Below, in pieces: positions 41,494 through 60,575 of a stretch of DNA of 64,000 bases (position 1 is the first letter of the stretch; each line of letters opens with the position of its first letter). The DNA lies in assembly GCA_035536275.1 (NCBI GenBank), contig DATLOL010000056.1, positions 1,339 through 65,338 on the forward strand. Direction: 5' to 3'. This DNA comes from Thermoanaerobaculia bacterium. GTDB taxonomy: Bacteria > Acidobacteriota > Thermoanaerobaculia > Gp7-AA8. Below the pieces are notes generated by a model. That model was not told the origin of the DNA. It saw only the letters and a program-made list of their open reading frames with translations, and did no database searches. The translations under genes and the position numbers were made by a program.

Positions 41494-42099
41494 ATGGCGC
41501 AGAGCCAGCGCGACGATCAGGAAGCGATCAAGTATCTCGAGCGAGGAGAAGTCGAGCGCTTCTTTCGCTGCATTCCAGAGCGAAAAACGCGTGACCTACT
41601 GCTCTTCGATCTCATCTACCGGCACGGCCTACGGCGGAGCGAAGCCGGTCTTCTCGAACTCGAAAACGTGCGGGATGGGAAGGTCTGGATTGCGCGCCGG
41701 AAGCACGGTTTGCCAGGCGCGTATCCGCTTCACCCGCGAAGCAAAGAGCTGCTGGCGCGCTACCTTAAGGAACGACCGCAGGACGGGTCGGTGTACCTCC
41801 TCCGCAGCCGGCGCCATGCTGACCGGCCGCTCTCGGGCGCTGAGGTCAACCGGCTTTTCCACGCCTATGCGACCGCGGCGGACCTTCCCGCCGACCGACG
41901 CCATGTTCACGTCCTGCGGCACTCGATCGGTGTGCATCTGGCCAACGCGAACTGGGACATCGCCGACGTGCAGGATTGGCTTGGCCACCGCCGCATCACG
42001 TCGACTCTCATCTATTTTCGCATCACGAACAAACGGCGCGAAGCCAAGCATCGCTCTTCCCTTCATTCACGAGAGATCGCGCGGACGGATGGCGGCTGA
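41494..42099 (+). CDS. Short tyrosine recombinase (catalytic domain)
   Basis: Start at ATG 41494 (MAQSQRDDQEAIKYL...). 'YRHGLRRSEAGLLELENV' (Arg), 'HVLRHSIGVHLA' (H-x-x-R), 'WLGHRRITSTLIYFRI' (His...Tyr). Confidence 0.75.
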   Translation: MAQSQRDDQEAIKYLERGEVERFFRCIPERKTRDLLLFDLIYRHGLRRSEAGLLELENVRDGKVWIARRKHGLPGAYPLHPRSKELLARYLKERPQDGSVYLLRSRRHADRPLSGAEVNRLFHAYATAADLPADRRHVHVLRHSIGVHLANANWDIADVQDWLGHRRITSTLIYFRITNKRREAKHRSSLHSREIARTDGG

Positions 42100-42608
42100 A
42101 CGCCACGAACGCACGCTTTTCCACATTTTCGTCAAATCGCGACACACGATCCGGACTGGATTTGACGCGAGTTCGATCGACTACCGTCGCTTCATCGGCC
42201 TCAACGACACGCCGGCGTCGTCGTTTCGGGAGTTCATAGATGAGAAGGGATTTCGACATTCCGGCCGGGTCGACGGCTCCATGCTGCCGTCCGCAGTTTC
42301 CCTCGCCTTGCCGAATGGGATGCGCCCCGTCCCGACGCGCGTGAGCGATGGATGCCGCGGAGATTTGCTGGATTTACGACCGCAGATCTGCGCGCTCAAG
42401 TCGACCATCCCATCAGCTCCTCCAACGTCCGGGGTGAAGGGACCGCGATGCTGACCGGAGCCGTTCTTTGGCGCCGCGGACCGAAGGAAGGTCTCGTGTT
42501 CGCGTCGGGACCGCGAACGTGTAGCCCAGCACCTGTTCCCTCGGTTTGGGACCACCCAAGGTAGGGAAAATTCAATCCCCGTCACTCCTACTACTGGAGA
42601 GAAAGGCC

Positions 42609-45041: not shown

Positions 45042-45064
45042 ACAGGCAGAGAGGAATTCACATC

Positions 45065-46567
45065 ATGAAGAGTCGTGGAATCATAATCAGCCTCATTCTC
45101 CTGCTGAACGTGACAACTGTCGCTGCACAGAAGCTTGCTCTTGTGACTCGTGTTGGGCGCGGAACTGTGGCACCGAAGAAGGATGCGTTTGCGGCGCTCA
45201 CGGCGACATATTTTACTGGCGATTCCAAGGGTCTTCGAGAGGGTCTCGTCGATCTGCTGAAGGACCCGGTATACCTCGACGCGAACGAGAAATTTATCGA
45301 CGAGATCGTCCACAAGTTCGACTTCGACAGGAATTTCTATTCGTTCATCTTCGTAGCCAAAGACCCGACTGCGAAGGATCCGCAACTGGTACGGGTGCTT
45401 ACCTATCCGAAGTCGTTCGCCGCGTATTACAGGGATGCCGGCGCAACTGAAATCGAGCTGGGGAATGCGTCTCTGCCTGGAGTACAGCAAATCTACGACG
45501 TCTTCCTCTATACCGGAAAGGCCTCCATCGGTATCACCTATACGTACACGGAAACCGAAAACCCACTGAACGCGCAGATGATCGCCGCTGCCAAGCTGGT
45601 CAACTTTGGCGAGATTGCGTCTGCAATCAGCTCACAGGATGTCGTTGCGAAGCAGCTCGAACGCGCAGCGCCTGGTGCCCGGCCCGAAGTGGATCCAGCA
45701 GACAAGGAAGTGGTCTACTTCACCATTTCCAGCGTTTCGATTCCAGCCACGCGTGCCACGGTGACGGCAAAGAGCACGGTCGACTTCGGCGACACTCCAC
45801 AAAAGAAGATTCGCACAGCCTCCATTGATGCACTTGCCGATGTCGAGCTTAGGCACCGCGTGATCTCGCCTTGCGCGCTTGCAATCGCTGAAGCCTCAAA
45901 CAAGGCAGTCCGCGACAACACGGCGGAATCCGACGATCCGCTCATTAAACGAGATGACCTGAAAGCGGCCGTGCGTAAGGCGATCAATGAGGTCCAGGGA
46001 AATACAACTTGCCAGGACGAACCGCAGAAGCCGCCTGTCGAAGCGGTCGCGCTGCGCGCGGACACCATTCGCGCGACGATTGACCGCTTTCTTGCCATCG
46101 CCGACGGCGGTGAGTCGAAACGCATGGAGAACAACACCGTCTATACGAACTCTCCACTCAATCGGTTCAGTTTGGGACTCGTCGCTGGCGGCATCTTCAA
46201 TCCATCGGGCGACGATCGGGTCAAGCTATCCGACGAGGGAAAGGTGGTTGCCGATCCGTTGAGCGGAGCGATCAGTGTCGCCGCACTCTATATCCACCCT
46301 ATGCCATACCTCAGCGGCACGGCCAGACCGTCGCAGGCGGAAAGGGTGCGCTTTATGGTCGGATATGTCGCCACTCCCGAACCAGGGCTTGCTGTCGGTG
46401 TTGCGTACCAGCTCTTTCGTGGTTTGACGATGAATGTCGGATACGCGGGTATGCTGGTCGACAGACTTGCGAAGGATGTCGAGGTAGGAACGACACCAGC
46501 GGTGGAACGTCCTTTCGAGCGAGGGGTAGCGCGTGCATTGTTTGCCGGTTTTGGATACAGCTTTTAA
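45065..46567 (+). CDS. Secreted protein with a C-terminal outer-membrane beta-barrel-like signature
   Basis: Start at ATG 45065 (RBS AGAGGA), with signal peptide 'MKSRGIIISLILLLNVTTVAAQ'. The C-terminal part has alternating hydrophobic strands and ends 'ALFAGFGYSF' (terminal Phe). Confidence 0.55.
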   Translation: MKSRGIIISLILLLNVTTVAAQKLALVTRVGRGTVAPKKDAFAALTATYFTGDSKGLREGLVDLLKDPVYLDANEKFIDEIVHKFDFDRNFYSFIFVAKDPTAKDPQLVRVLTYPKSFAAYYRDAGATEIELGNASLPGVQQIYDVFLYTGKASIGITYTYTETENPLNAQMIAAAKLVNFGEIASAISSQDVVAKQLERAAPGARPEVDPADKEVVYFTISSVSIPATRATVTAKSTVDFGDTPQKKIRTASIDALADVELRHRVISPCALAIAEASNKAVRDNTAESDDPLIKRDDLKAAVRKAINEVQGNTTCQDEPQKPPVEAVALRADTIRATIDRFLAIADGGESKRMENNTVYTNSPLNRFSLGLVAGGIFNPSGDDRVKLSDEGKVVADPLSGAISVAALYIHPMPYLSGTARPSQAERVRFMVGYVATPEPGLAVGVAYQLFRGLTMNVGYAGMLVDRLAKDVEVGTTPAVERPFERGVARALFAGFGYSF

Positions 46568-46866
46568 TCGAGAGTCACCGAGAACCTCTCGGATGCGATT
46601 TCCTTGCTGAAGGCCTTCATCTTTTGGGGGGGCTCGACGGTCACGCCTTCCTCGGCCGCGACCTTCTCTGCGTGAGCATGATCGCGTCGCGAACGGGGCG
46701 AACCTGGAGCCGTCGCCTGCAGGGCTGCGAAACCGGACGGCGCCGGTACGGCCGAAGTGCTGCATTCAGATCGTCTTAGACTGTCGCAGGCCGAGCGTCG
46801 ATCCCCACAGGCGCGGGCTGTTTTCCTTCTTGCGTAGGCAAGCGATAGCCAGCAGAATGTGAGAGA

Positions 46867-47568
46867 ATGACCGCCTTCCACATGCCCTCCGCGCGACGAC
46901 GGAGATTAGTACTTGACCGTCGAACCGTGCTGGCGGTTTGCCGAGAACTCAGCGCCGCATCCGACGACAATCGTTTGGGCAATCCATCCGACCCTCTTTC
47001 GGACCTTATCTACATCGTCATCAGCAACAAAACTGCGCCGGGGATGGCATCGCGCACCTATGCGAATCTGACGCGGCAGTTCAATCGATGGGAAGATCTG
47101 CTCGAAGCACCCATCAGTGCAGTTCGCCGCGTATTGCGACCAGCCGGTCTCGCAGGCGTCAAGGCGCGGCAGCTGCGAGGGGCGTTGCGGAAGATCAAGC
47201 GAGATCTCGGAGAGCTGTCGCTGGATGCGCTCCGAGGCTGGCCCGAAAGACGCCAGCTCGAGTACCTGACCACGCTTCCCGGTGTTTCGGGCAAGGTCGC
47301 GCGATGCGTGATGATGTACACGCTCAACGCGCACGTTCTTCCGGTGGACGCTCACGTACATCGCCTGGCGCGGCGCTTGGGATGGACGAGCCGCAAACGC
47401 GCTGACCAATGCCATGAGGAGCTCGAGGCGATCATTCCGCCGGCGAGCCGATTCGCGTTCCACGTCGGTGCGATCCTAGTCGGCCGCTCGATCTGTCGTC
47501 CACGCGACCCACGCTGTGGAGAATGTCGCCTCCGGAGCTACTGCCCGGCAGCAACGAAAAGCGCATGA
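46867..47568 (+). CDS. HhH-GPD superfamily DNA glycosylase (endonuclease III / Mig-like) with a 4Fe-4S cluster loop
   Basis: HhH 'LTTLPGVSGKVARCVMMY', catalytic Asp block 'LPVDAHVHRLARRLGW', cluster 'CRPRDPRCGECRLRSYC' (C-x6-C-x2-C-x5-C). ATGA overlap with the MTase start. Confidence 0.8.
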   Translation: MTAFHMPSARRRRLVLDRRTVLAVCRELSAASDDNRLGNPSDPLSDLIYIVISNKTAPGMASRTYANLTRQFNRWEDLLEAPISAVRRVLRPAGLAGVKARQLRGALRKIKRDLGELSLDALRGWPERRQLEYLTTLPGVSGKVARCVMMYTLNAHVLPVDAHVHRLARRLGWTSRKRADQCHEELEAIIPPASRFAFHVGAILVGRSICRPRDPRCGECRLRSYCPAATKSA

Positions 47569-48683
47569 ACGGAGCCGCTCGACCGATCGCGATCGACATC
47601 TTCAGCGGAGCGGGCGGCATGTCGTTGGGGTTCGAGCAGGCAGGCTTCGACGTGCCTGTCGCGTACGACATCAATCCGGTCAACGTCGCGACGTACGCTC
47701 GCAATTTTCCGGAGGCGGAATCGATCGAAGCGGACGTTCACAAACTGACTGGAGACGCGATCCTTGCGAAGGCTGCCGTGCGCTCCGTCGACGTGCTCTT
47801 CGGCGGCCCTCCGTGTCAGGGATTCTCCGTCATCGGGAAGCGTCGCGCCGACGACCCGCGAAACGAACTGCTGTTGGAGTTCGCGCGTCTCGTGGACGAG
47901 GTGCGTCCGCGGTACTTCGTCGTCGAGAACGTGGCCGGCCTAACGATCGGTGCCGCTCGGAAGAGCTTGCAGAAGTTTCTTGCGCGGGCGAAGAAAGCAG
48001 GCTATCGCTGCATCGATCCGGTCCAAATCCTCGACGCGAGTCATTTTGGCGTTCCGCAACAGCGACGGCGCGTATTCATTCTCGGCCATCGGGCATCCTT
48101 CCCCGCACCGGCATATCCGGTCGCGCAGGAGGGCGTGTCGCCGACCGTATGGGACGCGATCGGTGACCTCTCGCTGTTGGATCTGCACGCCGCCGACGAT
48201 CGCGGCGATTGCTACGAAGGTCCGCTCGGCGCGCCGTCGACCTACGCAAGCGTCCTGCGCGGAGAAACCGATGACCTCGACGACCTATCGTACGCGCGCG
48301 CGGCGTCGGCCACCGGTCTGCAAGGCTGCGCTCGGAGCGTCCACAGCGTGGTGACGATTCGCCGTTTCGCGAAAACGAAGCCCGGGCATCGGGAGCACGT
48401 CAGCAAGTTTCACCGCCTCGACGCCGCCGGCATTTCGTACACGATTCGCGCGGGCACGGGACCCGAGAACGGCTCGTTCATGGCGTCGCGGCCGATTCAT
48501 CCCGAATACCCGCGGTGCATCACCGTCCGCGAGGCGGCGCGCCTCCACTCCTTCCCGGATTGGTTCCAGTTCGATGCAACGAAGTGGCACGGCTTTCGGC
48601 AGATCGGAAACTCCGTCCCGCCGCTAATGGCGAGGGAGGTTGCGAAGTGCATAATGGCGGCACTTAATCGACGCAAACGCTGA
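47565..48683 (+). CDS. dcm: DNA (cytosine-5)-methyltransferase
   Basis: Motif I 'DIFSGAGGMSLG', IV 'GGPPCQGFS', VI 'VVENVAGL', VIII 'GVPQQRRRVFILG', X 'IGNSVPPLMA'. Confidence 0.9.
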   Translation: MNGAARPIAIDIFSGAGGMSLGFEQAGFDVPVAYDINPVNVATYARNFPEAESIEADVHKLTGDAILAKAAVRSVDVLFGGPPCQGFSVIGKRRADDPRNELLLEFARLVDEVRPRYFVVENVAGLTIGAARKSLQKFLARAKKAGYRCIDPVQILDASHFGVPQQRRRVFILGHRASFPAPAYPVAQEGVSPTVWDAIGDLSLLDLHAADDRGDCYEGPLGAPSTYASVLRGETDDLDDLSYARAASATGLQGCARSVHSVVTIRRFAKTKPGHREHVSKFHRLDAAGISYTIRAGTGPENGSFMASRPIHPEYPRCITVREAARLHSFPDWFQFDATKWHGFRQIGNSVPPLMAREVAKCIMAALNRRKR

Positions 48684-50059
48684 TGGCAACTACCAAGAAA
48701 GCGACGGCGGCCACCGCTCCGAACGCATCGGACCTCGTCGATGCGGAGCCCACGAAGGATCTCTTCATCGAAATGCTCGTCAAGGACATCACATTGATCC
48801 CCGCGATCAAGGACCTCGTGGACAATTCCGTGGACGGCGCGCGAGCCTTGCGAGCGGGATCGACGGCCAAGAATCGGTACGATGGCCTCGAGATCCGAAT
48901 CGACGCCGACAAGAAGCATTTCAAGATCTCGGATAACTGTGGCGGCATCCCGATCGACGTCGCTCGGAACTACGCGTTTCGCTTCGGCAGGCCGAAGGGA
49001 ATGCCTCGAACGCCGCACTCCGTCGGTCAGTTCGGCGTCGGAATGAAGCGTGCGCTCTTCAAGCTCGGGACGAAGTTCTCGATCGACTCGACGGCCGAGC
49101 GATCGTGGTTCAAGCTGGATGTGGACGTGGATGCGTGGCGACAGCGGCCGGAATGGCAGTTCGTTCTTACCGATCATCGCGACAACGAACCGCAGAACAC
49201 CGCGAAGCGCGGAACCACGATCGTGGTGCCTGATCTTCACGACTCAGTGGCCGAGCAGTTTTCGCTCGAGAACTTCAAGACAGAACTCGTGAAGGAACTC
49301 GAAGAAGCTCATCAAGAGAGTCTGGATAGCGGCCTGACGATTACGCTGAGTGGCATCCCACTCCGCACGCGCCCCCTCACGTTGTTGCAAGCGGACGAAC
49401 TGAAGCCCGTGGCGTATTCGCGGACGATTCATGTAAAGGACAAAGGCGACGTCAACGTTCGGATTTACGTCGGCGTCGGAAAATCCGATCCCGTCGCCGG
49501 CGGCTGGTACGTGTTCTGTAACGGTCGCCTGATCGTCGGTGCCGATCAATCCGCAGTGACGGGCTGGGGCGACACCGCAGAAAAAGGGATTCCGCGGTAC
49601 CACGGTCAATTCTCTCGGTTCCGCGGCTTCATTTTCTTCGACGCCGCCGACCCGCTCCTTTTGCCCTGGAATACGATGAAGACCGGCATCGATACGGACT
49701 CCCCACGGTTCCGCGCGGTCCGGCTCGACATGACGCGACTCATGCGTCCCGTCATCGACTTCCTCAACAAGTTGGACGGCGAGAAGGCGAAGTATCCCGA
49801 CGACGACGGCCCTCTCCAGACGGTCGTGCGGTCTGGCAAGGACGTTCGCCTTTCGGAGCTGCCAGACAACGACAAGTTCCTATGGCCGAAGCCGACGCCC
49901 GCGCCGAAATCGAGCGGCGACGCGACGGTTATCAAATACTCGCGACCGACCAACAAGATCAAGGCCGTGAAGGCGGCGATCGGCGCGCGGAGCAATAAGG
50001 AAGTCGGCGAAAAGACGTTCGATTACTACTTCCAAGCAGAGTGTGATGGCGATGGGTAG
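48683..50059 (+). CDS. GHKL-superfamily (MORC/MutL-like, HATPase_c_3-style) ATPase
   Basis: N-box 'KDLVDNSVDGA', G1 'ISDNCGGI', G2 'SVGQFGVGMKRALF'. Its ATG shares its A with the dcm TGA. Confidence 0.7.
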   Translation: MATTKKATAATAPNASDLVDAEPTKDLFIEMLVKDITLIPAIKDLVDNSVDGARALRAGSTAKNRYDGLEIRIDADKKHFKISDNCGGIPIDVARNYAFRFGRPKGMPRTPHSVGQFGVGMKRALFKLGTKFSIDSTAERSWFKLDVDVDAWRQRPEWQFVLTDHRDNEPQNTAKRGTTIVVPDLHDSVAEQFSLENFKTELVKELEEAHQESLDSGLTITLSGIPLRTRPLTLLQADELKPVAYSRTIHVKDKGDVNVRIYVGVGKSDPVAGGWYVFCNGRLIVGADQSAVTGWGDTAEKGIPRYHGQFSRFRGFIFFDAADPLLLPWNTMKTGIDTDSPRFRAVRLDMTRLMRPVIDFLNKLDGEKAKYPDDDGPLQTVVRSGKDVRLSELPDNDKFLWPKPTPAPKSSGDATVIKYSRPTNKIKAVKAAIGARSNKEVGEKTFDYYFQAECDGDG

Positions 50060-51014
50060 TTACGAACGGATCAACTACGCGCTCCGGCCGGCGAAAAGCA
50101 TCGAACGGAAGATGATGGTCGAAGCGCTGCGGAAGCTCGCGCCGTTCGGTGCGGTCTCCGCGTACCGATACATCGGTTTCGGATCGACGTACTTCAGCGA
50201 CTTCGTGCTCGTACACAAGGCGCTCGGTATCTCGAACATGATCAGCATCGAGCAGGATGTCGAGAATCAAGACCGCTTCGCGTTCAATCGTCCGTATCGC
50301 TGCATCGCGATCGAATTCGGGTCGTCCAACGAAGTTCTTCCGACGCTCCCGTGGAACGTCCGGACGATCGGATGGCTGGATTACGATGGTCCTTTAGACG
50401 CTAGCGTGCTCGCCGACGCGCGGTTCTTCGTTGCGACCGCCCGCGCCGGCAGCGTCTTCATCGTCAGCGTAAACGCGGAGCCGGACCGCAAAGCCGGCGG
50501 CGCCGATGCGGAGATTGCGAAGTATCGCCTCGACAAGTTGAAGGAACGAGTCGGCGATCCAAAAGTGCCTGACGACGTGCTCGGCAAGCAGCTCGCGAAA
50601 TGGGGTACGGCCGCCGTGTACCGGCGCATTCTCTCGAATGAGATCGAAACGACGCTCGTCGAGCGAAACGGCGCGCTTGAATCGGGAAGCAAGTTGCGAT
50701 TCAAGCCCCTCTTTCATTTCCGCTACGCGGACAATGCAAAGATGCTCACCGTCGGAGGCTTGTTGTTCGATGAAGGGCAGGAAGTTCTCGTGAACTCTTG
50801 CAACTTCGAAAAGCTGGACTTTATCCGGACCAACGGCGAGCCCTACCTCATCGAGGCGCCGAATCTCACGTACCGCGAGATCCGTCATTTGGATCGGCAG
50901 CTTCCGTGTAGCGCGGTGGCCGACCTCGACGCGCCCGGTGTCCCATCGGACGACATCCGCAAGTACTCGGATGTCTACCGATACTTTCCCACGTTCGCGG
51001 AGACGGAGATCTGA
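50046..51014 (+). CDS. 322-aa unknown protein with a Rossmann/class-I-methyltransferase-like strand pattern
   Basis: It overlaps the GHKL gene end by 14 nt. 'YRYIGFGSTYFSDF', 'NMISIEQD', 'IGWLDYDG', 'SVFIVSVNA'. No family recognised. Confidence 0.5.
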   Translation: MAMGSYERINYALRPAKSIERKMMVEALRKLAPFGAVSAYRYIGFGSTYFSDFVLVHKALGISNMISIEQDVENQDRFAFNRPYRCIAIEFGSSNEVLPTLPWNVRTIGWLDYDGPLDASVLADARFFVATARAGSVFIVSVNAEPDRKAGGADAEIAKYRLDKLKERVGDPKVPDDVLGKQLAKWGTAAVYRRILSNEIETTLVERNGALESGSKLRFKPLFHFRYADNAKMLTVGGLLFDEGQEVLVNSCNFEKLDFIRTNGEPYLIEAPNLTYREIRHLDRQLPCSAVADLDAPGVPSDDIRKYSDVYRYFPTFAETEI

Positions 51015-51017
51015 CGT

Positions 51018-52424
51018 GTGCTTGGGCGGCTGACCGACTACCTCGTCGCGGCCCACGTGCTCGTCGTTATCTTTTTGGTCGTCGCCAACTTTCAGGCGAT
51101 ACGCGCGCTCAGCCGCCGCTCGTTCTCCTATTCGGCGCTCGGATGGTTCGCACATTTCGTGTATCTGTGCGTCGGCCTCACGTCCTACGGAACCGTTGCC
51201 GGCGTTCGCATGTTCGAGCGCCAATGGTGGATCGCTCTCATCAGTCTTAGCGGCGTCGTTGCTTCTTACTTCTTCTGCATGGCGCTCCTTCGCGAGCGTG
51301 ACGGACGGCCGCGGTGGGCCTGGCCGACCGCAATCTTCATACTCGGCGCCGTAGCGGTGAGTTGGCTGGCCGTGCAACTACCGCCGCGGTATGATGCGCT
51401 GCTCGACGGACTGATCGTCTCGCTCGGCTTCGTAGTGCTGGCCGTCTATTACCGCCGCGTGCTCGTCGAAGCGCTACCGACCACCCGCCGCCTGCCGTGG
51501 ATTCCAGTAGCAGGGGCGCTCTGCTACGCGACGTTGCAGCCGTTGTCCCTGTTGGGTGGCGCGAACACCACCTTGGTTCCACAGTCGATATACGTGCTCG
51601 CGATCGCGAGCAAGCTTCTGATGGCGTTCGGGCTGCAAGCGGCGTTCATCGCGCGCGCCGCAGCGGGGGCTCGTCTCTATGGCGCCGCAGCAACCATCGG
51701 GCGGCTAACGCACGAGTTAGGGACTCCGATCGCTCAGATCGGCCTCCAGGTCGAGCGCATCACGCGGATGCTTGACTCGGACAAGACCGAACGGCTGCAG
51801 GATGATTTGTACGCGCTCGATAACGCCGTGCTTCGCGTGAAGGCGACCCTCGCGGCGACGCAGCAGCTGCTGCCGACGCCGGACGACATCATCGACCTGC
51901 ATCGCCTTCTGATGCCGGCCGATGGCGCGGCGCAGCCGCGACGCGAAGCCGTCATCAACGTCAATACGGTCGTGCAACTCGCAATGATGGCGGTCAAGGA
52001 GACGCGGGCAGAGCGCGTTCACTTGACTGTCGCGTACGCGCACAACTGCTGCGTCCGGGCCGATGCGTTCGAACTCACGCAGGTATTCGTGAATCTATTG
52101 CGAAACGCGTACGAGGCATTTCCGAATGGGATCGGAAGCGTCGCGATTCGCACTCAGGGCGATGGCAGCCAAGAAAAGGGCCGGGTCGTCATCTCGGTCA
52201 CCGACGACGGCGAGGGCATCCGGCGCGATCTACTGCCCGTTGTCTTTCGGGACGGCGTGAGCGCGAGGGGCGGTCCCGGTCGCGGATACGGTCTGGCGGT
52301 CGTGCGTTCGATCGTTCAGCGCTACGGCGGCTCCATCACGTTAGAACCCAACGAGGCGCCCGGCGCTACCGGGACGATCGCGACCGTCGTTCTGCCGCGC
52401 GTACGGTGCGGATCGTATGCGTAG
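51018..52424 (+). CDS. Sensor histidine kinase with a multi-TM (about 6-7 helices) membrane-embedded input domain
   Basis: GTG start 3 nt after the previous stop. H-box 'RLTHELGTPIAQI', N-box 'NLLRNAYEA', G1 'DDGEGI', G2 'GRGYGLAVV'. There is no obvious periplasmic domain. Confidence 0.8.
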   Translation: MLGRLTDYLVAAHVLVVIFLVVANFQAIRALSRRSFSYSALGWFAHFVYLCVGLTSYGTVAGVRMFERQWWIALISLSGVVASYFFCMALLRERDGRPRWAWPTAIFILGAVAVSWLAVQLPPRYDALLDGLIVSLGFVVLAVYYRRVLVEALPTTRRLPWIPVAGALCYATLQPLSLLGGANTTLVPQSIYVLAIASKLLMAFGLQAAFIARAAAGARLYGAAATIGRLTHELGTPIAQIGLQVERITRMLDSDKTERLQDDLYALDNAVLRVKATLAATQQLLPTPDDIIDLHRLLMPADGAAQPRREAVINVNTVVQLAMMAVKETRAERVHLTVAYAHNCCVRADAFELTQVFVNLLRNAYEAFPNGIGSVAIRTQGDGSQEKGRVVISVTDDGEGIRRDLLPVVFRDGVSARGGPGRGYGLAVVRSIVQRYGGSITLEPNEAPGATGTIATVVLPRVRCGSYA

Positions 52425-52453
52425 CGCGGACCCGTGCGAGACTGCGTAGGAGG

Positions 52454-53443
52454 ATGATGGTGCCGACCCCGAAGAGCATTGCCACCAAGCCGCGGGTTCT
52501 GTGGCTCGACGACGACGCCGTATACCTCGATGCCATCCGCCAGGCTATCGAGGATCGCGTTGACGTTACGACGGCGACCTCCGCAGACGAAGCGATTGCA
52601 CTGCTCGCGCGCGGCGACTCGTACGACGCCGTCGTCACCGATCTCGTGCTTTCGCCGAACGAGGCGGGCGGCTTGGAGTTCATCAAGTTCGCCAAATCGA
52701 CATCACCCACGACTCCCTTGATCGCCGTATCTGCATTTTCGGCGCGCTACACGCGCGAACTGAACGATCTCGGCGTCGACGCTCTGTTGGACAAATCCGA
52801 TCTGAACCGGGAGGCGCTTATAGATCTCATCGCCTCGATCGTCCGGCAACCCGCGCGAGAGCACGGCTCGATGGAGTTCGTGCGAGAGATTGAAGTTCGG
52901 CGAATCGTCGAAGAAGAGATCAAGAGGCTCGTGCCGGAAAAAGAGCGTACGCTCGATCTTCTCGAGCACGGCCGCTTCGAACTGATAAAGCCGCTCGTGG
53001 GCTACAAGCACGACATCGAACGGCAACTTCTCCGCTTTCCGTACGACAGGAATGTGTTTCTCATGATGAAGTTCCGGTCGACGAACGTCGAATTGGGAGA
53101 GTTCATCATCGAATCGCTGGCGCGTGCGGGGCTGTGCGGCGTCCGGGCGGATCAAGATGCGTGGAACATCACGCGGAACGTGTACAACCCGATCGCGGTG
53201 CTGTATTGCTGCAAGTTTGGTATCGCACTGTTCGATGAGGCCGAGACCGGGCAAGCGTATAGCCCGAATGTCGCGTACGAACTCGGGATGATGCACTATC
53301 AAGGTAAAGAGTGCCTGATTCTGCGCCATGCGTCGCTGCCAGCAGTGCCCTTCGATTTGATCAAAGATCTGTATCAGGAATACTCGAAAGACCTGCAAGT
53401 ACGCGCGCGCGTGGAGGCGTGGTTGCGGCAAATCGCTCCTTGA
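52454..53443 (+). CDS. Response regulator: REC domain fused to a TIR / nucleoside-2-deoxyribosyltransferase-like (flavodoxin-fold) output domain
   Basis: ATG 52454 follows AGGAGG. REC: 'VLWLDDD', 'AVVTDLVL', 'LIAVSAF', 'ALLDKS'. C-terminal domain: 'NVFLMMKF', 'IAVLYCCKFGIALFD', 'SPNVAYELGMMHYQGKECLILRH' (conserved Glu-x-Gly...GK pattern). Confidence 0.6.
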   Translation: MMVPTPKSIATKPRVLWLDDDAVYLDAIRQAIEDRVDVTTATSADEAIALLARGDSYDAVVTDLVLSPNEAGGLEFIKFAKSTSPTTPLIAVSAFSARYTRELNDLGVDALLDKSDLNREALIDLIASIVRQPAREHGSMEFVREIEVRRIVEEEIKRLVPEKERTLDLLEHGRFELIKPLVGYKHDIERQLLRFPYDRNVFLMMKFRSTNVELGEFIIESLARAGLCGVRADQDAWNITRNVYNPIAVLYCCKFGIALFDEAETGQAYSPNVAYELGMMHYQGKECLILRHASLPAVPFDLIKDLYQEYSKDLQVRARVEAWLRQIAP

Positions 53444-53639
53444 TTCCGCCGTCACCCGGTCCAAACATTCAAGATCTCGCAGGAACTGACGAATCGGCCG
53501 AGATCGCTGATTTCGAATCGCATTACCAAGGGCGCGGACGGGGCCCTGTCGCAGGGCGCTCTCACGCGCGGACGGTTGCCATCGCGCCGCGGACCCGTAC
53601 TATGAGGATGGGAGGCGCGACGCGGACGCTCCTCCGTTG

Positions 53640-53713
53640 CGGGGCGTGGCGCAGTCTGGTAGCGCGCTTGGATGGGGTCCAAGAGGTCGCAGGTTCGAAT
53701 CCTGTCGCCCCGA
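53640..53713 (+). tRNA. tRNA-Pro (anticodon GGG), CCA not encoded
   Basis: Manual cloverleaf: acceptor CGGGGCG/CGCCCCG, D-stem GCGC/GCGC, anticodon stem CTTGG/CCAAG with loop ATGGGGT, T-arm GCAGG-TTCGAAT-CCTGT, discriminator A. Confidence 0.85.
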
Positions 53714-54225
53714 TGACACGCGGAGCCTGCTGATCAGAGATCGGCGGCCTTCGCGTAGCGAGCACTTCGTGTTGACGGCGCTGTATCGACGCTCCGTTCT
53801 GCGATTTACGAACTGCACCGATCCGTGCTACGAAGTGCGTGCCCAGCTCTCCTTGACTTCGCCGCATCCAGCGCGCCAGCTGCACACGCACAGGCGCGCT
53901 CTCCGCGACCGCGAATCCAGCGTTTGGGGCTTGCAGACGCCAATAGCGCAGAACCCCCGCCTAGCGCGCCTGCCTGGGGGGACTCCACGCTTAGGAACAC
54001 GATTCACGCGTGTCGTCAACACGCCGTTCTGCGCACGAGCAAGGGGTTTCTCGCGTCCGGTGCGTCGCACGTGGCTGAAATCGAGAGCGTGCCTGCTACA
54101 CGGAGACACCCGCGCTCCTGTCGCAGCCCGCTGTGGGCGCACCCGCAGCGGAGTCGCGCAGTGGAAACGGCGCATGGATGCAGAGAACTCGTCAAGGAGG
54201 GGGCGGTCCCTAACCCCTTCCTCCC

Positions 54226-55275
54226 ATGTTCCCCTCTTCTTCTCCACTCCCACCTGCGCAGTTCGGGATTCCAGTCCCACCTGCGTCTTCTAGCCCGCCG
54301 CCGCCTCTGTTCGGCACGACGGCACTACCGTCCTCGGGCGATGCGCGGCCGGAGAACGAGGAACTGCTGCGCCAAGTGGTCGCTCGGTTCGAGTGCTTCG
54401 CCGACTACGCACTCCACGTGCTGAACCAGAGCCGCATGACGGTGCGGTGGTACCGCGACGCCATGCGCAACTACGTGGCGTTCCTCCGGCTCGGGCTCGG
54501 CCTGCCACCCGACGACTTCCACCGGCGAATCTACGACATCGATGGGTGGGTCCGATGGAACCTCCACGACCGGAAGCTTTCGGCCGTCTCGATGCACGGC
54601 TACTGGCGCGCCGTGAAGCGGTTCTGGAAGGACGTTGCCGCGCGCGACGGCGTCCAGAACCCGTTCGTAGGCAAGCGGCCACCCGCAAGACCGCAGCGCG
54701 TCCCCAAGGCGCACACACCCGACGAGTGCCGCCGCATTCTCGCCGCGGGCGAGAACTACCCGTGGGAGACGCCCTTCCACCGCGCCCGCGCGCTCGCGAT
54801 CCTCGGCACCGCGCTTCTCGCAGGACTCCGGAAGAGCGAGCTGCTCGCACTCGAAGTGCGCGACGTGGACGTGAACGCCGGCACGATCCGGGTCCGCCAC
54901 GGCAAGGGCAGCGGCGGGGGCAAGGAGCGCGTTGCGTACATGCCGGACGAGCTCCGCAGGCTTCTCACCGCGTACAACTCCGCGCGGGCAGCCGCGCACC
55001 TCGTCTGCCCCGACTACTTCGCATCCCTCAAGTACCGGCGTGGCATCAAGCGGGACACGCTCAAGCGGCTCGTGACGTACGTCCGTGCAGCCTCCGGCGT
55101 GAAGTTCACGATGCATACCCTCCGGCACAGCTACGTCTCGTGGCTCGTCCGGTCGGGGGTCCCGCTCCCGGTTGCGAGCGAGCTCGCCGGCCACACGATG
55201 ATTGAGACCACGATGAACTACATCCGCGTCTTCGACACAGATAAGCGTGCGGCGGTTGGCCGACTGCGGATGTGA
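54226..55275 (+). CDS. Tyrosine recombinase/integrase (XerC/D-like)
   Basis: 'LAGLRKSELLALEVRDVD' (Arg), 'HTLRHSYVSWLVRSG', 'LAGHTMIETTMNYIRV' (His...Tyr). The N-terminal Pro/Ser-rich 40 aa make the exact start uncertain. Confidence 0.8.
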   Translation: MFPSSSPLPPAQFGIPVPPASSSPPPPLFGTTALPSSGDARPENEELLRQVVARFECFADYALHVLNQSRMTVRWYRDAMRNYVAFLRLGLGLPPDDFHRRIYDIDGWVRWNLHDRKLSAVSMHGYWRAVKRFWKDVAARDGVQNPFVGKRPPARPQRVPKAHTPDECRRILAAGENYPWETPFHRARALAILGTALLAGLRKSELLALEVRDVDVNAGTIRVRHGKGSGGGKERVAYMPDELRRLLTAYNSARAAAHLVCPDYFASLKYRRGIKRDTLKRLVTYVRAASGVKFTMHTLRHSYVSWLVRSGVPLPVASELAGHTMIETTMNYIRVFDTDKRAAVGRLRM

Positions 55276-55362
55276 AGCTCGAGTCGAGGGCTTCTGGCAG
55301 AGCAGTCGTCAGAGGCCCTCGTGCTCGGGATGTTGACGCTTGGACGAAGACGCGGTCGTCCC

Positions 55363-56154
55363 TTAGTCCCACAGAAGAAGCGGTCCATCGCCGGCATATC
55401 CGATGAAGCCTTGCAGTGTTGTCCGCACCCCCGTGTCGAAGCGGTGGATGGCGTGGAGTCGACGCGCGTTGAAGATGACAAGATCGCCGACTGCGGGACG
55501 CACGACGAGTGTGGGAGGAACGTCCGGCCGGCCGACCGGCACATGGGATCGTCCGTCGATCCAGCCGAACTGCGCCCATATCTCGAGTTCGGCGCCGGTC
55601 GGCGGCACTTCAAGGTAGATATTCGCCGCGAGCTGCTCCACGAGCGGAAAGATTGTCGCGGGCAGGCCGTCGACATGCGGGTAGAGTTCGGAGCTCACGG
55701 ACGTGGCAGCGTTCATGATCCGCGCGATGCCGACGAACATCGGCTTCTCCTCAAATCGCGCGAGCAACGCTCCTGCTGGCCAGACCTCGTCCAGCTCCAG
55801 CCGTAGCTTGTCGATCGGCGAGAGGTATGGCGCGGCAGCAGCTCTGACCTGCCGGATCTGTGGCAACGCATCGGCGTAATATTGCTGCCGCGCCGTCGAA
55901 TCTGACGCCGCGGTCAACACGCTGTTGAACGGCGTTCCGACTCGGTCAACGCCGTAGTAGGCGTACCGGATCGTACCGTGCTCGTGGATCTCATGGTCGT
56001 ACGGCCGTCGGCCGTCATGGTTGGCTAGCCATGACGCAAGTCGTTGGCAGAGTTCCGCGTTTGCGTACGACGCGATGCGCAACGCGAGTGCGCGGCCACT
56101 GAGTAAACGACTGAGGCCATCAGCCGTAAGTGCGGACTCGGTCAGCAGATTCAC
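55363..56154 (-). CDS. 2OG-Fe(II) oxygenase-superfamily-like protein
   Basis: 263 aa. 'LYPHVDGLP' (HxD) and a distal 'ARRLHAIHRF' (His), with beta-rich C-terminal half. Motif-level call only. Confidence 0.45.
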   Translation of the reverse strand: MNLLTESALTADGLSRLLSGRALALRIASYANAELCQRLASWLANHDGRRPYDHEIHEHGTIRYAYYGVDRVGTPFNSVLTAASDSTARQQYYADALPQIRQVRAAAAPYLSPIDKLRLELDEVWPAGALLARFEEKPMFVGIARIMNAATSVSSELYPHVDGLPATIFPLVEQLAANIYLEVPPTGAELEIWAQFGWIDGRSHVPVGRPDVPPTLVVRPAVGDLVIFNARRLHAIHRFDTGVRTTLQGFIGYAGDGPLLLWD

Positions 56155-56879
56155 TTCGCCACACCGCGTCCAGCGCGCCTCCGTGCAATGCAGTTTTCGA
56201 TCTTCACGTCACTGTCGCGCCCGAAGTCTGTTTCGACGGACGAAGCGCGTGGGAACGAGAAACCAGCGTCGGTGAACAAATGCTTGAATTCGCGGAGCGG
56301 GCGGCAGTGCGCGGGCATCGCACGCTCCGGCGAGGTGACCACCTGACGCGCCGCCGCGTGCGCGAGCCCCAAGAGGACGAGCGCCCCTGGTCGCGAGATG
56401 CGATGCATCTCGCGCACGATCGCCTCATGCTGATCAAAGTCGCAGCAGTTCAGCAGCCCGTCCGCAACGAGCAGATCGAAGTAGTGATCGAGGAACGGCG
56501 TCGCCTGCGCGGGCGTCACGATTGGCAGAAAGTCGACACCGTGCTGAACGGCTTCTTCCAATGCCTGTGGCAGCACATCGAGCGCGACGACGGCGACGCG
56601 GAGTCTTGGGTTGTACTGCGTGAGAAACTTCTTCAAGTCTCGCGGGTTCGCCCAGTGAGCGCAGCCGACGATGAGACAGCGCAGCGTGCTAGGACGGCGT
56701 ACGAGCGCGCGTATCAGCCGAACGTTCATAGCACGGGTTGCAAGATCGTTGAAGAAACCGAAGAGCCTCCGCGAGCGGTTTTTCTTGTAGAAGGCGAAGA
56801 AAGTCGCCAGCTTGCTGGCACTCATCGGCGGCGGTCCGGGACGTCGTCCCGATCCTCGATCACGCTTACCAGTACTCAC
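56151..56879 (-). CDS. Class I SAM-dependent methyltransferase-like protein
   Basis: 242 aa. 'LRCLIVGCAHWANP', 'VVALDVLP', 'FDLLVADGLLNCC', 'ISRPGALVLLGL'. ATGA overlap with the oxygenase-like gene. Confidence 0.5.
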   Translation of the reverse strand: MSTGKRDRGSGRRPGPPPMSASKLATFFAFYKKNRSRRLFGFFNDLATRAMNVRLIRALVRRPSTLRCLIVGCAHWANPRDLKKFLTQYNPRLRVAVVALDVLPQALEEAVQHGVDFLPIVTPAQATPFLDHYFDLLVADGLLNCCDFDQHEAIVREMHRISRPGALVLLGLAHAAARQVVTSPERAMPAHCRPLREFKHLFTDAGFSFPRASSVETDFGRDSDVKIENCIARRRAGRGVAK

Positions 56880-57049
56880 GTCTCAGCACCTCCATTACCG
56901 TTCGTGCTCAGAGGGAAGTTCTCGCCGCCCGGCGAGAAAACGATCTGCTTCCTCTCGGTGGCTGGACCCTTCTTCTTGTTAGGGAGTGACCAAGAACCAC
57001 AGTTCCCTACCCTTACCAGCGCCTTGACGTGAGCCGTGTTGGCGAGCGA

Positions 57050-58112
57050 TCAGAACTCAAGCTCAAGGCGATCCGCGGCCGCGAGATGCTCGCCTGAGAA
57101 CACGGCGGAGTAGCGCTGCGTCATCGCGAGGCTCGCATGCCCAGCGAGGTCCATCGTGACGCGATCGTCCGCACCCGTCTGCCGCATGAGCGTCACGTAG
57201 GTGTGCCGGAGGACGTGCGGTGACACCGGTAAGCCAGTCTTCGCGCGGATTGTCGAGAACAGGCGACGGATCGCGCCGTCGCCGATGCGCCGTGCGCCGC
57301 GGAGCGTCAGGAAGTAGGGGTCCGCGGCGGCGTACCCCGCTGCCTCGCGCGCCTCCTCGTACGTGCGAAGAATCGCCGCAAGCTGCCGCGGCATGTACGC
57401 GGTCCGCGTCTTGCCACCGTGGCGCCCCTTACTGCGGACGATGCGGAACGTCTGTGCGGCGGTCTGCACGTGCTTCAGGTCGAGGCGCATCACCTCACCG
57501 CGGCGGAGGCCCGCGAGCGTCATGGAGGCGACGACCGCGAGGTTCCGCGCCGTGAGGAACGCAGGGCCGCGAGCATGCGCGAGGTGCGCGAGTAACCGCT
57601 CCGCGTCGGCGCGCTGGAGCGCGCGCGGCACTGGCGCGCTCGCTGCCGGCCGCCGGAAGAGCCGGAACGGGTTCCAGATCCCATCGAGCGTCGTAAAGCG
57701 ATCGACGAGCGACAGCATCGCGGACCAATAGGACCGCACCGTGCCGTGGAGCACGCCGCGGCCACGGAGCCACGCGATCCACTCCTCCAGCACGCGTGCC
57801 TGCGCGCGCGTCCGGCTCGCCCCGGAGGAGCGTGGTCGTGCTCCCGGTATCGTCGAGGAACCGCCGGAACTGCGCGTACGACGTACGCCACCAGCGCACC
57901 GTCGCGTCGCTTACGCCGTCCACGCCATGCCCGTACCGAACGGCGCGCGCAACCTCCTCGTCGAGCCGCTCGATCGACGCGAACTGGAACGGCCGCGTCG
58001 CGCGCGCTCGCGCCGCGGCGGGTGCCGTTGGACCGAACGGGAGCCACGGTGGCGACGGGACGTGCGCTGGCTGTAAGCCGGACGGGGCGTGCGGATCGAG
58101 CATGCAGGTCAC
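57050..58112 (-). pseudogene. Tyrosine recombinase split by a frameshift at a (GC)n run near 57805-57815
   Basis: The catalytic part (57050-57793) has 'LAGLRRGEVMRLDLKHV', 'HVLRHTYVTLM', 'LAGHASLAMTQRYSAV'. The N-terminal SAM-like core-binding part 'SDATVRWWRTSYAQFRRFLDDTGSTTTLLRGEPDAR' is in the frame of ORF 57495..58112. The frames meet at GACGCGCGCGCAGG. Confidence 0.6.
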
Positions 58113-58113
58113 G

Positions 58114-59769
58114 TTAGGAATTCATGTCGTCGTCGGCCGCAATGCCTGCGGCGCGCATCCGCCGCGCGCTCCGCGCGGCGATCGCATCGTGGAGCGGTGA
58201 CGCGGCCTCCGTGAGCGTCGCGGGCACGCGCGCGCGTTCCCCGTCCTTCCAGGCTAGCATCGCAGCATCGATGCGGGTCCGCAGCTCGCGCGGCGAGAAC
58301 GGCACGGGCACGGGCTTCAGGACTTGGATGCGGCGTGCCTTGTAGGGCCGCCCCTTGAGTAACCAGTAGCACGCGCCCACCGGCAGGTTCGCAAGGTCCG
58401 CCGTGCGCCACGCGATCTCCTCGGGCGCAGTGAGCAGCGGCTCCTCGATGCGTTCGTTCGGGCGCGTCTGCTCGCGCCAGACGCTCCCGAGCGGCTCGAA
58501 GATGTCGCGGGCCAGCGCGCGCGCCTCGGAGTGCGGGAGCCGGAAAAAGAACTGCCGGCCGGTGTTCCCGAGGAGGTGCGGGCGGAAGCTCGGCGGGAAG
58601 AGCGACAGCCCTTGCGCGGCGAGCGTGACGAAGACCCGATACTTGCGCGCCGCGACGAGGAAGTCTTCGAGCCCGCTCTCTGCTGCCGCAAGCACATGCG
58701 CCTCATCGAGCAGGATCGAGTACGGCCGCCGTTTGTCCGGCGGGACGCGCTCGCGCCGGAGCGCGGCGGTCTGGAGCGCATTCACGATCAAGCGCCCCAC
58801 CACGTCGGCGGTCGGCCCGAGATAGCCTTTCGCGAGGTTCACGAGCACGGTGTCGCCGCGGTCAATGACGCCCAAAAGATCGATGGTTGATTGCGGCTGG
58901 CCGAGGAACCGCTGCACCGCAGTCGACCCGAGGAAGGGCTCCAGCTTGTTCAGGACGGCGGAGACGTACATCTCCTCGCGCGCGCCGAAGCGCGAGGTGA
59001 AGTAGCCGCGCACTCCCGCGCTCGCCGTCGCGAGGACCTGCTGGCGCACGGCGGGCAGGAGGAAGAACGACCGGAGCTCGACGAGTGTGATCGGCTCGGC
59101 GCTTTCGATGCACGCCCGCAGCGCGTACCGGGTGATCTCTTCGACCTTCACGCCCCAGCTCCACGACGCGACGTCCTCGCCCGCGTAGAGGCGCTTCAGG
59201 ACGCCGACGAGGAGATCCACGTGGCGTCCGATGTCGACGCCCGCGAGCCGCGTGAGGAGGTTCCAGCCGGGCAGGGTCTCCGGCCGGGTGAAATCGATGA
59301 GGACGAGCCGCGGTGGCGGCGTTGCGACCGCGCGCGCCGCCACGCGCGCGAAGAGATCGCCGTGGAGGTCAATGAGCGTGAAGCCGCGCTGCTCGCGGAC
59401 GTGGTACTGCGCGAGATGCTCCAGCAGCGACGACTTGCCGCTCCCTGTCGCGCCGAGGACGAGGGTGTGTTGGAGGAGATCGCTCGGTGCGAGATGCGTG
59501 GTGATCGGATCGCCACCGGGCACGGCGTACGTGCCAAACGCCATCCCGGTGCGGTTCCGCTGCGCCTGCACGAACGGATCGCGCGCCCAGAACGCCGCCC
59601 AGCCTTGGCGCGCCCTCGCCGTGGACGTGTCGAAGGTGAGCGACAGCGCATCGCGATCCGGGCGAGGCGGTCGGGAGATCATGGAGCGACGGAAGGCCGC
59701 GCGGCATCGGCGGAGGAGCGCGGAGCCCGCGAGGAGGGCGAGGCCGAACGAAGGCATGCGGGTGTTCAT
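58114..59769 (-). CDS. FtsK/HerA/TraD-like P-loop ATPase (conjugative coupling-protein type)
   Basis: Start at ATG 59769 (MNTRMPSFGLALLAGSALL...). Walker A 'LVLGATGSGKSS', Walker B 'YSILLDEAHVL', 'VFVTLAAQGLS'. The track ORF extends spuriously to 60318. Confidence 0.65.
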   Translation of the reverse strand: MNTRMPSFGLALLAGSALLRRCRAAFRRSMISRPPRPDRDALSLTFDTSTARARQGWAAFWARDPFVQAQRNRTGMAFGTYAVPGGDPITTHLAPSDLLQHTLVLGATGSGKSSLLEHLAQYHVREQRGFTLIDLHGDLFARVAARAVATPPPRLVLIDFTRPETLPGWNLLTRLAGVDIGRHVDLLVGVLKRLYAGEDVASWSWGVKVEEITRYALRACIESAEPITLVELRSFFLLPAVRQQVLATASAGVRGYFTSRFGAREEMYVSAVLNKLEPFLGSTAVQRFLGQPQSTIDLLGVIDRGDTVLVNLAKGYLGPTADVVGRLIVNALQTAALRRERVPPDKRRPYSILLDEAHVLAAAESGLEDFLVAARKYRVFVTLAAQGLSLFPPSFRPHLLGNTGRQFFFRLPHSEARALARDIFEPLGSVWREQTRPNERIEEPLLTAPEEIAWRTADLANLPVGACYWLLKGRPYKARRIQVLKPVPVPFSPRELRTRIDAAMLAWKDGERARVPATLTEAASPLHDAIAARSARRMRAAGIAADDDMNS

Positions 59770-60575
59770 CAGATGGTGGTGCGGGTGAGGAGCACGAGGA
59801 AGAGCACGAGTACGAGGACGGCCGTCGCAAGCACCGCGAGGTGCACGAGCGCCCGGCGCAGGAACGGGATCGCGAGATAGCGAAGGAGCAGACGCTCGAA
59901 TCGCGAGGGCGGAGCGGGGTCGGAGACGACGAGTCCGCCGTGTGCCGGATGCCGGGCGAGGAGGGCGCGACGCGCGAGCTTCCGAAGGTGCCAGCGCGCA
60001 TGCGCACGCCCCCGCAGTTTCACCATGCCGACCAGGTGATCGACGTGCGAGTCCGGCCGGTGCGGCTCGCACCAGAGCAGGTAGAGGTACACCGTGAACG
60101 TCGTTCGTCCGACGAGCGGCAGCACCTGCACGAACCAGTGCGTCGGGAGATCCTGCTGCACGGTGCGCTCGGCATGGCGGGCCTGCACGCCTGCGACGAT
60201 CTCCACGAGGACGGTATCGATCCCCCAGAGGTCTTCGACGGAATAGATGAGATGGCCCGAGCGCGTGAGCCGGTCGAGCCAGCGGATGACCCGGCGGTTC
60301 GACACGCGGAGCATCCACGCGAGGTCGTTCACGCGGAGCGCGAGGAGTCCCGTCCGTTGCCGGAGCGCCTTCGCAAGCAGCAGGAGCAGCGCTTCGTCCC
60401 GGCCGACGGCGTCCACGACCACGAAGAATCCGGAGAGGTCGGCGCGCACGGTCGAGATGCCTTCCGGTGGTTCCGGTCGAGGTGTCAGGAACCGGAGGCG
60501 CGTCGAATCCTGGAGCGGATGGTCGGGCCGGGGATGCGGGGCGCCGCTAGGCTGCGGCAGGAAGAACTCCAGCAT
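59769..60575 (-). CDS. Winged-helix-like DNA-binding protein with a C-terminal TM anchor
   Basis: Start at ATG 60575. 'LRVNDLAWMLRVSNRRVIRWLDRLTRSGHLIY', and the C-terminal 'LVHLAVLATAVLVLVLFLVLL'. Its stop overlaps the ATPase ATG by 1 nt. Confidence 0.45.
   Translation of the reverse strand: MLEFFLPQPSGAPHPRPDHPLQDSTRLRFLTPRPEPPEGISTVRADLSGFFVVVDAVGRDEALLLLLAKALRQRTGLLALRVNDLAWMLRVSNRRVIRWLDRLTRSGHLIYSVEDLWGIDTVLVEIVAGVQARHAERTVQQDLPTHWFVQVLPLVGRTTFTVYLYLLWCEPHRPDSHVDHLVGMVKLRGRAHARWHLRKLARRALLARHPAHGGLVVSDPAPPSRFERLLLRYLAIPFLRRALVHLAVLATAVLVLVLFLVLLTRTTI

Follow-up and report, generated by a model that had tools for sequence, protein, structure and literature searches.

What does a bacterial response regulator do when its receiver is coupled to something other than a DNA-binding domain? 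The question is raised by a gene at 52454-53443 (+) in a 64,000-nucleotide stretch of a Thermoanaerobaculia genome (Acidobacteriota; assembly GCA_035536275.1, contig DATLOL010000056.1), which is referred to here as the window. The gene, an intact open reading frame (ORF) of 329 amino acids plus stop, encodes a receiver (REC) domain followed by a C-terminal domain that we call X, and it lies downstream of a gene for a sensor histidine kinase (HK) at 51018-52424 (+). A first reading of this DNA from its letters alone (the sequence-only reading) had taken X for a domain related to TIR domains and nucleoside deoxyribosyltransferases (NDT). We suggest that kinase and REC-X form a two-component pair whose predicted output is enzymatic rather than transcriptional, an interpretation that, taken as a whole, we lean towards. 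At its core, HK/REC-X would be a phosphorylation-gated N-glycosidase, probably an effector in conflict or stress, and for this our confidence is a little above even.

A receiver, a linker and a partner kinase

The gene at 52454-53443 is genuine and not a chance ORF of GC-rich DNA. This is because its product has a Pfam receiver match, its C-terminal 202 residues have 246 homologous proteins at E<=1e-3 (word-indexed search), and an exhaustive profile search with X retrieves 1391 clusters (50% identity), of which 776 have E values below 1e-10. The region is GC-rich, with long spurious ORFs on both strands. One of these, an antisense ORF of 253 amino acids at 52703-53464 (-), covers most of the X-coding region; the homologues belong to the forward frame, and the antisense ORF is taken to be an artefact of the GC-rich composition. 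A Shine-Dalgarno-like AGGAGG at 52448-52453 (+), read directly from the sequence, abuts the ATG at 52454. The start is ambiguous by two codons (ATG 52454, ATG 52457 or GTG 52460), of which GTG 52460 is better spaced from AGGAGG. In P0001, which does not differ from the window protein in the 202 C-terminal residues used as the query, the second ATG is the start (L and P numbers are ours, for loci and proteins).

The receiver spans residues 15-124 (52496-52825, +), where Pfam Response_reg (PF00072) matches with E 6.8e-10 and 39.5 bits against a cut-off of 30.2 bits. It has the acidic pocket D19-D21, the phospho-acceptor D63 (codon 52640-52642), S93 and K114, each of which is kept in 70-73 of 76 REC-X proteins. 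The sequence-only reading had called this part a textbook receiver, and the description holds. The ORF that it reported is present with an identical translation, and all the motifs that it quoted can be found: LDDD (D19-D21), VVTDLVL (D63), AVSAF (S93) and LLDKS (K114) in the receiver, and NVFLMMKF (residues 200-207), GIALFD (256-261) and SPNVAYELGMMHYQGKECLILRH (270-292) in the C-terminal part.

An alignment-based AlphaFold model made with 96 homologues (pLDDT 91.9, pTM 0.85; a single-sequence model reaches a pLDDT of only 35) has a CheY-like receiver at residues 14-131 and a long helix at 142-164. These are followed by a hairpin (166-176), a helix (179-194) and an alpha/beta core with strands at 200-204, 228-230, 255-260, 286-292 and 307-310, each with a helix or loop after it. 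The AlphaFold secondary structure sets the whole helical linker at residues 119-164 (52808-52945, +), and this linker is probably an element for dimerisation and signal transmission. In Foldseek searches the full-length model matches solved receiver domains at TM-scores of 0.8-0.88, and the best whole-chain matches, PorX and PleD, arise from the REC half. Matches to NDT, deoxyribosyltransferase and CMP-hydrolase entries in BFVD are ambiguous between the REC and X halves because REC has a flavodoxin-like topology too. Structure prediction with Foldseek, which had been put forward as a check on the nature of the C-terminal domain, gave a divided answer: a five-stranded alpha/beta domain is modelled, but the PDB and BFVD matches of the full-length model are mostly to the receiver.

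The kinase has 468 amino acids and is recognized by Pfam HATPase_c (E 1.6e-19, residues 349-461) and by many NCBIfam histidine-kinase models. In a Kyte-Doolittle scan its N-terminus (residues 1-220) is polytopic, with about 5-7 transmembrane segments and no large extracytoplasmic loop, and the H-box residue H232 (codon 51711-51713) comes directly after the last segment. Both genes are on one strand, the stop codon of the kinase being 29 nt before the start of the response regulator. The pairing is recurrent. A kinase of similar build lies directly upstream of REC-X in L001, L004, L005, L006, L009/L046 and L022. Of the 12 distinct REC-X loci examined, 7 have a polytopic membrane HK in that position, and including L004, a close relative, makes it 8 of 13. 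The remaining REC-X genes are orphans or follow genes for a Fic protein (L011) or a GHKL ATPase (L012). Neighbours at these kinase-less loci include the protein with the Fic motif HPFxxGNGR (L011, 2178-3668), the 740-amino-acid GHKL/MORC-like ATPase (L012, 1454-3676) and a BrnT toxin gene (L045, 9098-9391).

Class and distribution of the X domain

X occupies residues 165-329 (165 amino acids; 52946-53440, +), as characterized by alignments A1, A2 and A5, the AlphaFold model, weak Pfam matches, a transitive link to PF10137 and an hhalign comparison with DNPH1. An N-terminal hairpin and helix (166-194) precede the five-stranded alpha/beta core. In a broad alignment extended to relatives of only 26-40% identity, just two columns are invariant, N245 (53186-53188, +) and E276 (53279-53281, +). 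Other residues are conserved around them. Strand 1 contains N200, F202 and M204 and is followed by R208, and strand 2 is followed by R231 and D233, with N245 located at the helix that comes next. After strand 3 there are D261 and E262 and then a helix at whose beginning N272 and E276 are found. K285 precedes strand 4, and P299, F300, D301 and K304 come after it. The domain also has invariant motifs of its own, namely NVFLMMKFR, CCK[YF]GIALFD and NPNVAYELG. Among the 76 REC-X proteins, which come from several phyla, the mean pairwise identity of X is 68.8% (minimum 55%), compared with 28.6% for the receiver and 29% for the linker.

Searches with the window sequence itself gave little. Pfam returned only a sub-threshold match to Nuc_deoxyrib_tr (E 0.05, residues ~247-295), NCBIfam and PADLOC held no model of X and no match to it, and nothing meaningful came from PDB sequence and profile searches with X alone, with a close-family profile or with a broad profile. 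Among 34 diverse X sequences compared with Pfam, 26 match Nuc_deoxyrib_tr (best 7e-4) and six match CAP12-PCTIR_TIR, all below threshold and always on one Glu-bearing segment. For 136 more distant relatives found with the X profile, the corresponding numbers are 33 for CAP12-PCTIR_TIR (best 6e-7) and 11 for NDT. The proteins P0230 (25.2 bits) and P0255 (25.7 bits) are both above the gathering score of 24.7 bits of CAP12/Pycsar TIR (PF10137), and the X profile matches them at 7e-22 and 6.5e-20, respectively. In addition, hhalign aligns the broad X profile with a profile of DNPH1, whose sequence was confirmed against PDB entries, with an E value of 1.3e-3. The 115 aligned columns are colinear, beginning at strand 1 and ending at the last helix. 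The alignment puts NPNVAYELG of X on the catalytic SLGVGYELG of DNPH1. The sequence-only reading had pointed to a conserved Glu ahead of a G..GK turn; this residue is the invariant E276, and it falls on the NDT catalytic Glu. The controls are weaker, with E 0.042 over 25 columns for X against its own REC domains and E 0.19 for DNPH1 against REC.

The TIR-DrHyd-SLOG (TDS) class comprises domains that hydrolyse or transfer N-glycosidic bonds or that sense nucleotides (PMC9503650). Its published definition fits the mapped residues of X, which supports placement in the class. Strand 1 (200-204) is followed by K206, the invariant R208 and N211, and strand 3 (255-260) by D261, E262 and E264, with N272 and E276 at the beginning of helix 271-282. 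The model (pLDDT 92) has five strands that alternate with helices, its whole-chain Foldseek matches being mostly to REC. As in NDT enzymes, a Glu opens the helix after strand 3, and hhalign aligns it to the catalytic Glu of DNPH1. We treat X as a putative new family of the TIR-DrHyd(NDT)-SLOG class, because of its recurrent weak matches, the transitive link to PF10137, the DNPH1 alignment and the class definition. The proposal that X has a flavodoxin-type fold of the TIR/NDT kind thus stands at the level of class, through the weak Pfam matches, P0230 and P0255, and DNPH1; it does not extend to a curated family, whose thresholds X fails to reach.

The domain is a member of neither PF10137 nor PF05014. 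PF10137 is the closest curated family by transitive evidence, and X is probably related to it at the superfamily level; the window protein has no match to it, and the best of the 34 close X sequences is at E 0.0036. They share an alpha/beta core in which a Glu-bearing segment follows strand 3, whereas the N-terminal hairpin and helix are extra in X, which also has invariant motifs of its own. Regulation would also differ, by phosphorylation of REC in REC-X and by a fused cyclic-nucleotide sensor in CAP12/Pycsar proteins. NDT/DNPH1 (PF05014) is similar to X in having a catalytic Glu (YELG) and then a Lys-containing turn and strand 4 in the hhalign alignment. However, the strand-1 motif is different, X has no PDB sequence match, and the window domain scores 14.1-14.7 bits and the best X sequence about 21 bits against a gathering score of 28.8. 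A DNA-binding output was also considered and was rejected, as neither a helix-turn-helix (HTH) family nor a DNA-binding family of any other kind was matched in Pfam and NCBIfam scans.

X is a mobile module. A genome scan finds it in Acidobacteriota, Clostridia, Bacteroidota, Planctomycetota, Desulfobacterota-type metagenome-assembled genomes, Patescibacteria and one archaeon. Its architectures include REC-X (~330 amino acids), X followed by a beta-rich extension of ~150 amino acids, and fusions to nucleotide enzymes, i.e., Guanylate_kin-X (Pfam 28.9 bits) and X-NUDIX (39.8 bits). Effector-type fusions are TIR_2-X (P0121) and SIR2-X (P0155, with an Argonaute-associated-type SIR2 according to PADLOC). 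X comes after regulatory modules in GAF-GAF-X (P0123) and is C-terminal to an AbiJ N-terminal domain in AbiJ_NTD3-X (P0240), and P0138 is a giant AEP-TOTE primase/helicase/kinase-X protein. Further fusions (P0225, P0231, P0229, P0254) are acylphosphatase-X in two clusters, F5/8 type C-X, and X followed by a sub-threshold KOW-like motif.

Some of these architectures have recurrent neighbours. At seven loci (L016, L020, L023, L024, L027, L028 and L036; ~9.4-13.4 kb in each), Guanylate_kin-X is followed by a NUDIX-containing protein of 440-470 amino acids. In six of the seven (the exception is L027) a double P-loop kinase protein of 430-500 amino acids comes next, as two ORFs in L016. The hosts are Clostridia, delta-proteobacterial, Pyrinomonadaceae, Planctomycetota and Parasutterella genomes, and PADLOC recognizes no system in this cluster. 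X-NUDIX is followed by a separate NUDIX gene of 126-129 amino acids in L035, L037, L038 and L039 (at ~10.0-11.3 kb), from Bacteroidota and Patescibacteria. Distant X domains (X-profile E ~2e-21) make up the C-terminal half of a 'hypothetical protein' of 301-312 amino acids on ten small plasmids (3.6-13.6 kb) of Citrobacter, Klebsiella and Salmonella. Two of these plasmids were examined, L048 (NZ_CP054299.1, a 3576-bp Citrobacter plasmid; gene at 2543-3481, protein WP_200002678.1) and L049 (CP052530.1; 1067-1972). Both are ColE1-type and Rop-bearing. On the 3.6-kb plasmid L048, the X gene is the sole annotated gene besides the replication, Rop and HTH genes.

Proposed action, known systems and alternatives

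Our proposal builds on the demonstrated part of the system, namely the architecture, the intact phospho-acceptor residues, the recurrent pairing with a kinase and the invariance of the Glu of X, and on the probable fold class of X; catalysis and its substrate are what we infer, as are the direction in which regulation works, the signal that is sensed and a role in immunity. The membrane-embedded kinase would sense the state of the membrane or envelope and autophosphorylate on H232, and D63 in the receiver would take over the phosphoryl group. Once phosphorylated, the receiver would release or assemble X by way of the long linker helix, with dimerisation as the probable means. We suggest that X may use E276, with N245, N272 and the basic and acidic loop residues after strands 1, 2 and 4, to cleave or transfer an N-glycosidic bond. 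As candidates for the substrate we consider NAD+/ADPR derivatives or (d)NMP/(d)NTP. The outcome would be the depletion of an essential nucleotide, or the release of a nucleotide-derived signal, as a response to stress or to an invader.

We favour catalysis because the Glu and the Asn are invariant across deep divergence, and because X is in the output position after REC and GAF and is C-terminal after AbiJ-N. A nucleotide substrate is favoured because of the fusions and neighbours of the Guanylate_kin/P-loop kinase and NUDIX kinds. A conflict role is supported by the fusions to TIR_2, SIR2, AbiJ-N and AEP-TOTE and by mobile or defence-like contexts. For example, three integrases, PIN_12, FRG and a TIR_2-pentapeptide gene are near REC-X in L046, and L045 is a Mu- or transposon-like region with the BrnT toxin. 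Of all the steps proposed, a role in immunity or conflict is the least certain. A bolder version, which we put forward tentatively and with more doubt than confidence, is that HK/REC-X is a new class of defensive two-component system, in which phage-induced membrane perturbation, detected by the embedded kinase and relayed by phosphorylation of the Asp, would cause X to destroy NAD+ or a nucleotide. X would then be the common catalytic module of undescribed conflict systems, including the guanylate-kinase-X/NUDIX/double-kinase cluster, X-NUDIX, TIR-X, SIR2-X, AbiJ-N-X and the plasmid cargo gene.

The nearest precedent is Detocs, which has a histidine kinase (DtcA), a buffer receiver (DtcB) and a REC-PNP ATP nucleosidase (DtcC) that cleaves ATP and dATP on phage infection (Rousset et al., bioRxiv 10.1101/2023.01.24.525353). 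Defence by Detocs depends on the His of the kinase, on the Asp of the receiver and on the active site of the effector, and its effector domains can be swapped (bioRxiv 10.1101/2023.01.24.525353). The sequence-only reading had regarded control of such a domain by a membrane kinase as an unusual trigger logic. This claim is weakened, as Detocs already leads from a kinase through REC to an effector that destroys nucleotides. In both systems the DNA-binding output is replaced by a domain of a class that cleaves N-glycosidic bonds, though the cleaving activity is experimentally shown for DtcC and predicted from sequence here. The effector folds are different, PNP/phosphorylase in DtcC and TIR/DrHyd class in REC-X, as are the kinases, which are soluble and TPR-bearing in Detocs and polytopic membrane proteins in HK/REC-X. 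Membership of Detocs was rejected, since there is no PADLOC match and no DtcB gene.

A receiver, a helical linker and a catalytic output are also found in PleD (REC-GGDEF), PorX (REC-PglZ/phosphodiesterase), CheB and RpfG. However, none of their outputs is of the TIR/DrHyd class. In the searchable literature, outside which key older comparative-genomics papers lie, we found no description of a fusion between REC and a TIR/NDT-class domain, only precedents of the Detocs type. What is new here is the X family, a large one that no catalogue lists and for which there is no solved structure, as well as its occurrence in a REC-gated form; the trigger logic is already known from Detocs.

Several points weigh against an N-glycosidase with a role in conflict. 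X itself matches no curated family at threshold, the hhalign probability for X and DNPH1 is only 19%, and the NDT-like BFVD matches of the model may come from the REC half. PADLOC-DB 2.0.0, which presumably contains the Detocs models, has no match for the kinase or the regulator at E<=0.1, and neither the window nor the related loci have a stand-alone buffer receiver like DtcB. A homologue search with the membrane domain of the kinase returned nothing. At 69% identity across phyla, X is unusually conserved for an immune effector. Some REC-X loci have ordinary chromosomal or metabolic surroundings (L001, L047), and no phage record encodes X. The TIR and SIR2 fusions would fit a sensor role for X too. 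Finally, the TDS class includes inactive, nucleotide-binding versions, so that its domains may be non-catalytic nucleotide sensors (PMC9503650).

This last point leads to an alternative in which X is a non-catalytic nucleotide sensor or a protein-interaction module and phosphorylated REC-X is an adaptor. Its very high conservation would suit the binding of a universal ligand, and X is C-terminal to the effector domains TIR_2 and SIR2 in P0121 and P0155. CBASS- and Pycsar-type effectors usually have the effector at the N-terminus and the sensor at the C-terminus. We nevertheless consider a sensor unlikely. At 26-40% identity E276 and N245 are invariant and N272, D301 and others nearly so, a pattern typical of catalytic residues, and the Glu of X aligns with the catalytic Glu of NDT. 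Downstream of REC and GAF, moreover, X is where outputs normally sit, and in the loci examined no partner effector gene is conserved beside HK/REC-X. We give a similarly low probability to X as an active N-glycosidase with a housekeeping function, that is, a nucleotide-pool regulator responsive to envelope or stress signals, like the ppGpp-controlled PpnN or DNPH1-type sanitation. This would agree with the extreme conservation of X, with the lack of PADLOC matches, with the occurrence of HK/REC-X in several Acidobacteriota classes, at times among metabolic genes, and with the metabolic-type kinase and NUDIX partners of other X architectures. DNPH1, the closest sequence-comparable solved enzyme, is itself a pool-sanitising hydrolase. 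Against a housekeeping function stand the patchy distribution over distant phyla at 55-70% identity and the fusions to immune-type TIR, SIR2, AbiJ-N and AEP-TOTE domains. Moreover, the copy in the window is part of a low-GC island close to tRNA-Pro and integrases, other copies are among integrases, transposon genes, toxins and TIR genes, and distant X proteins are the cargo of small plasmids.

A further alternative concerns the genes just upstream. The kinase and response regulator are at the end of a string of six genes on one strand, 46867-53443 (+), that also encodes an HhH-GPD glycosylase, Dcm, an HATPase_c_3 ATPase and a PF20553 methyltransferase. The pair could be the regulatory arm of this cluster in a single operon, with X acting on DNA or on modified deoxynucleotides. 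The overlaps or gaps within the string are <=29 nt, no terminator-like site stands out between the six genes, and deoxynucleosides and modified dNMPs are substrates of NDT-class enzymes. L004, where the C-terminal region of the response regulator is 84% identical, has the six genes in this order too, between different flanks. However, the linkage is confined to such close relatives (at least 84% identity in this region). In L005, whose response regulator is 79% identical, and in all the more distant REC-X loci, the HK/response regulator pair occurs without the four-gene cluster, and both modules thus exist independently. We consider the single-operon explanation very improbable, and an obligatory link between the pair and the cluster was rejected. 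Because L005 and the distant loci carry the pair alone, we read the two modules as neighbours in an island and not as an obligate unit.

If the proposal of a phosphorylation-gated N-glycosidase is correct, X is a large unnamed branch of the TIR/NDT class that comprises 1391 clusters (50% identity) in bacteria and archaea, and knowing its substrate would bring a new nucleotide-cleaving activity to the set of TIR, SIR2, PNP and NDT. REC-X would provide the enzyme with a clean, genetically tractable on-switch, from H232 to D63, and would carry the Detocs idea of phosphorelay-gated nucleotide destruction over to a kinase that senses the membrane and to an effector of another fold. For experiments, the homologues on small enterobacterial plasmids are a convenient place to start. 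If X is a sensor or a housekeeping pool regulator, REC-X is still an uncharacterised type of response-regulator output, though of moderate interest.

The window island and a related locus

The four genes upstream of the kinase (46867-51014, +) form a cluster in their own right. The HhH-GPD glycosylase is a 'type II nicking endonuclease' in PADLOC and a monofunctional DNA glycosylase in NCBIfam. It is accompanied by a C5 cytosine methylase, a GHKL HATPase_c_3 ATPase with a weak MzaB match, and a PF20553 'putative O-methyltransferase' (E 8e-109). Literature searches on PF20553/Methyltransf_35 found nothing. The cluster resembles a system of the restriction-modification or modification-dependent kind that includes a T:G-repair glycosylase.

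The GC content of the window falls to 0.55-0.63 between 42 and 57 kb, against 0.67-0.71 in the flanks, and 42000-57000 was probably acquired, as a single island or as several. This low-GC stretch also encodes a Reprolysin-like protease that ends in a T2SSG tail (42546-45041) and an unknown 519-amino-acid protein. After the six-gene string come tRNA-Pro (53640-53713) and an integrase (54226-55275); the window was searched for an att-like repeat of the end of tRNA-Pro, and there is none. The features that follow are a weak, sub-threshold 2OG-Fe(II)-oxygenase-like match with a methyltransferase (55363-56879, -), a second integrase (57050-57793, -) and a HerA/FtsK/TrwB-like ATPase (58114-60318, -). 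Further away, an 880-amino-acid protein at 34609-37251 (+) scores 23.3 bits with NB-ARC (STAND NTPase), just under the cut-off of 23.5, and may be another conflict-type gene near the island.

In L005, which is from a Thermoanaerobaculia relative, the HK/REC-X pair and a small ribbon-helix-helix-like ORF are bracketed by similar ORF fragments at 7312-7818 and 12115-12420. The two fragments have the motif ALDVT.IEAASKLI.QW.AAG in common, which we take to be like the N-terminus of an integrase. This arrangement suggests that the HK/REC-X pair moved as a cassette.

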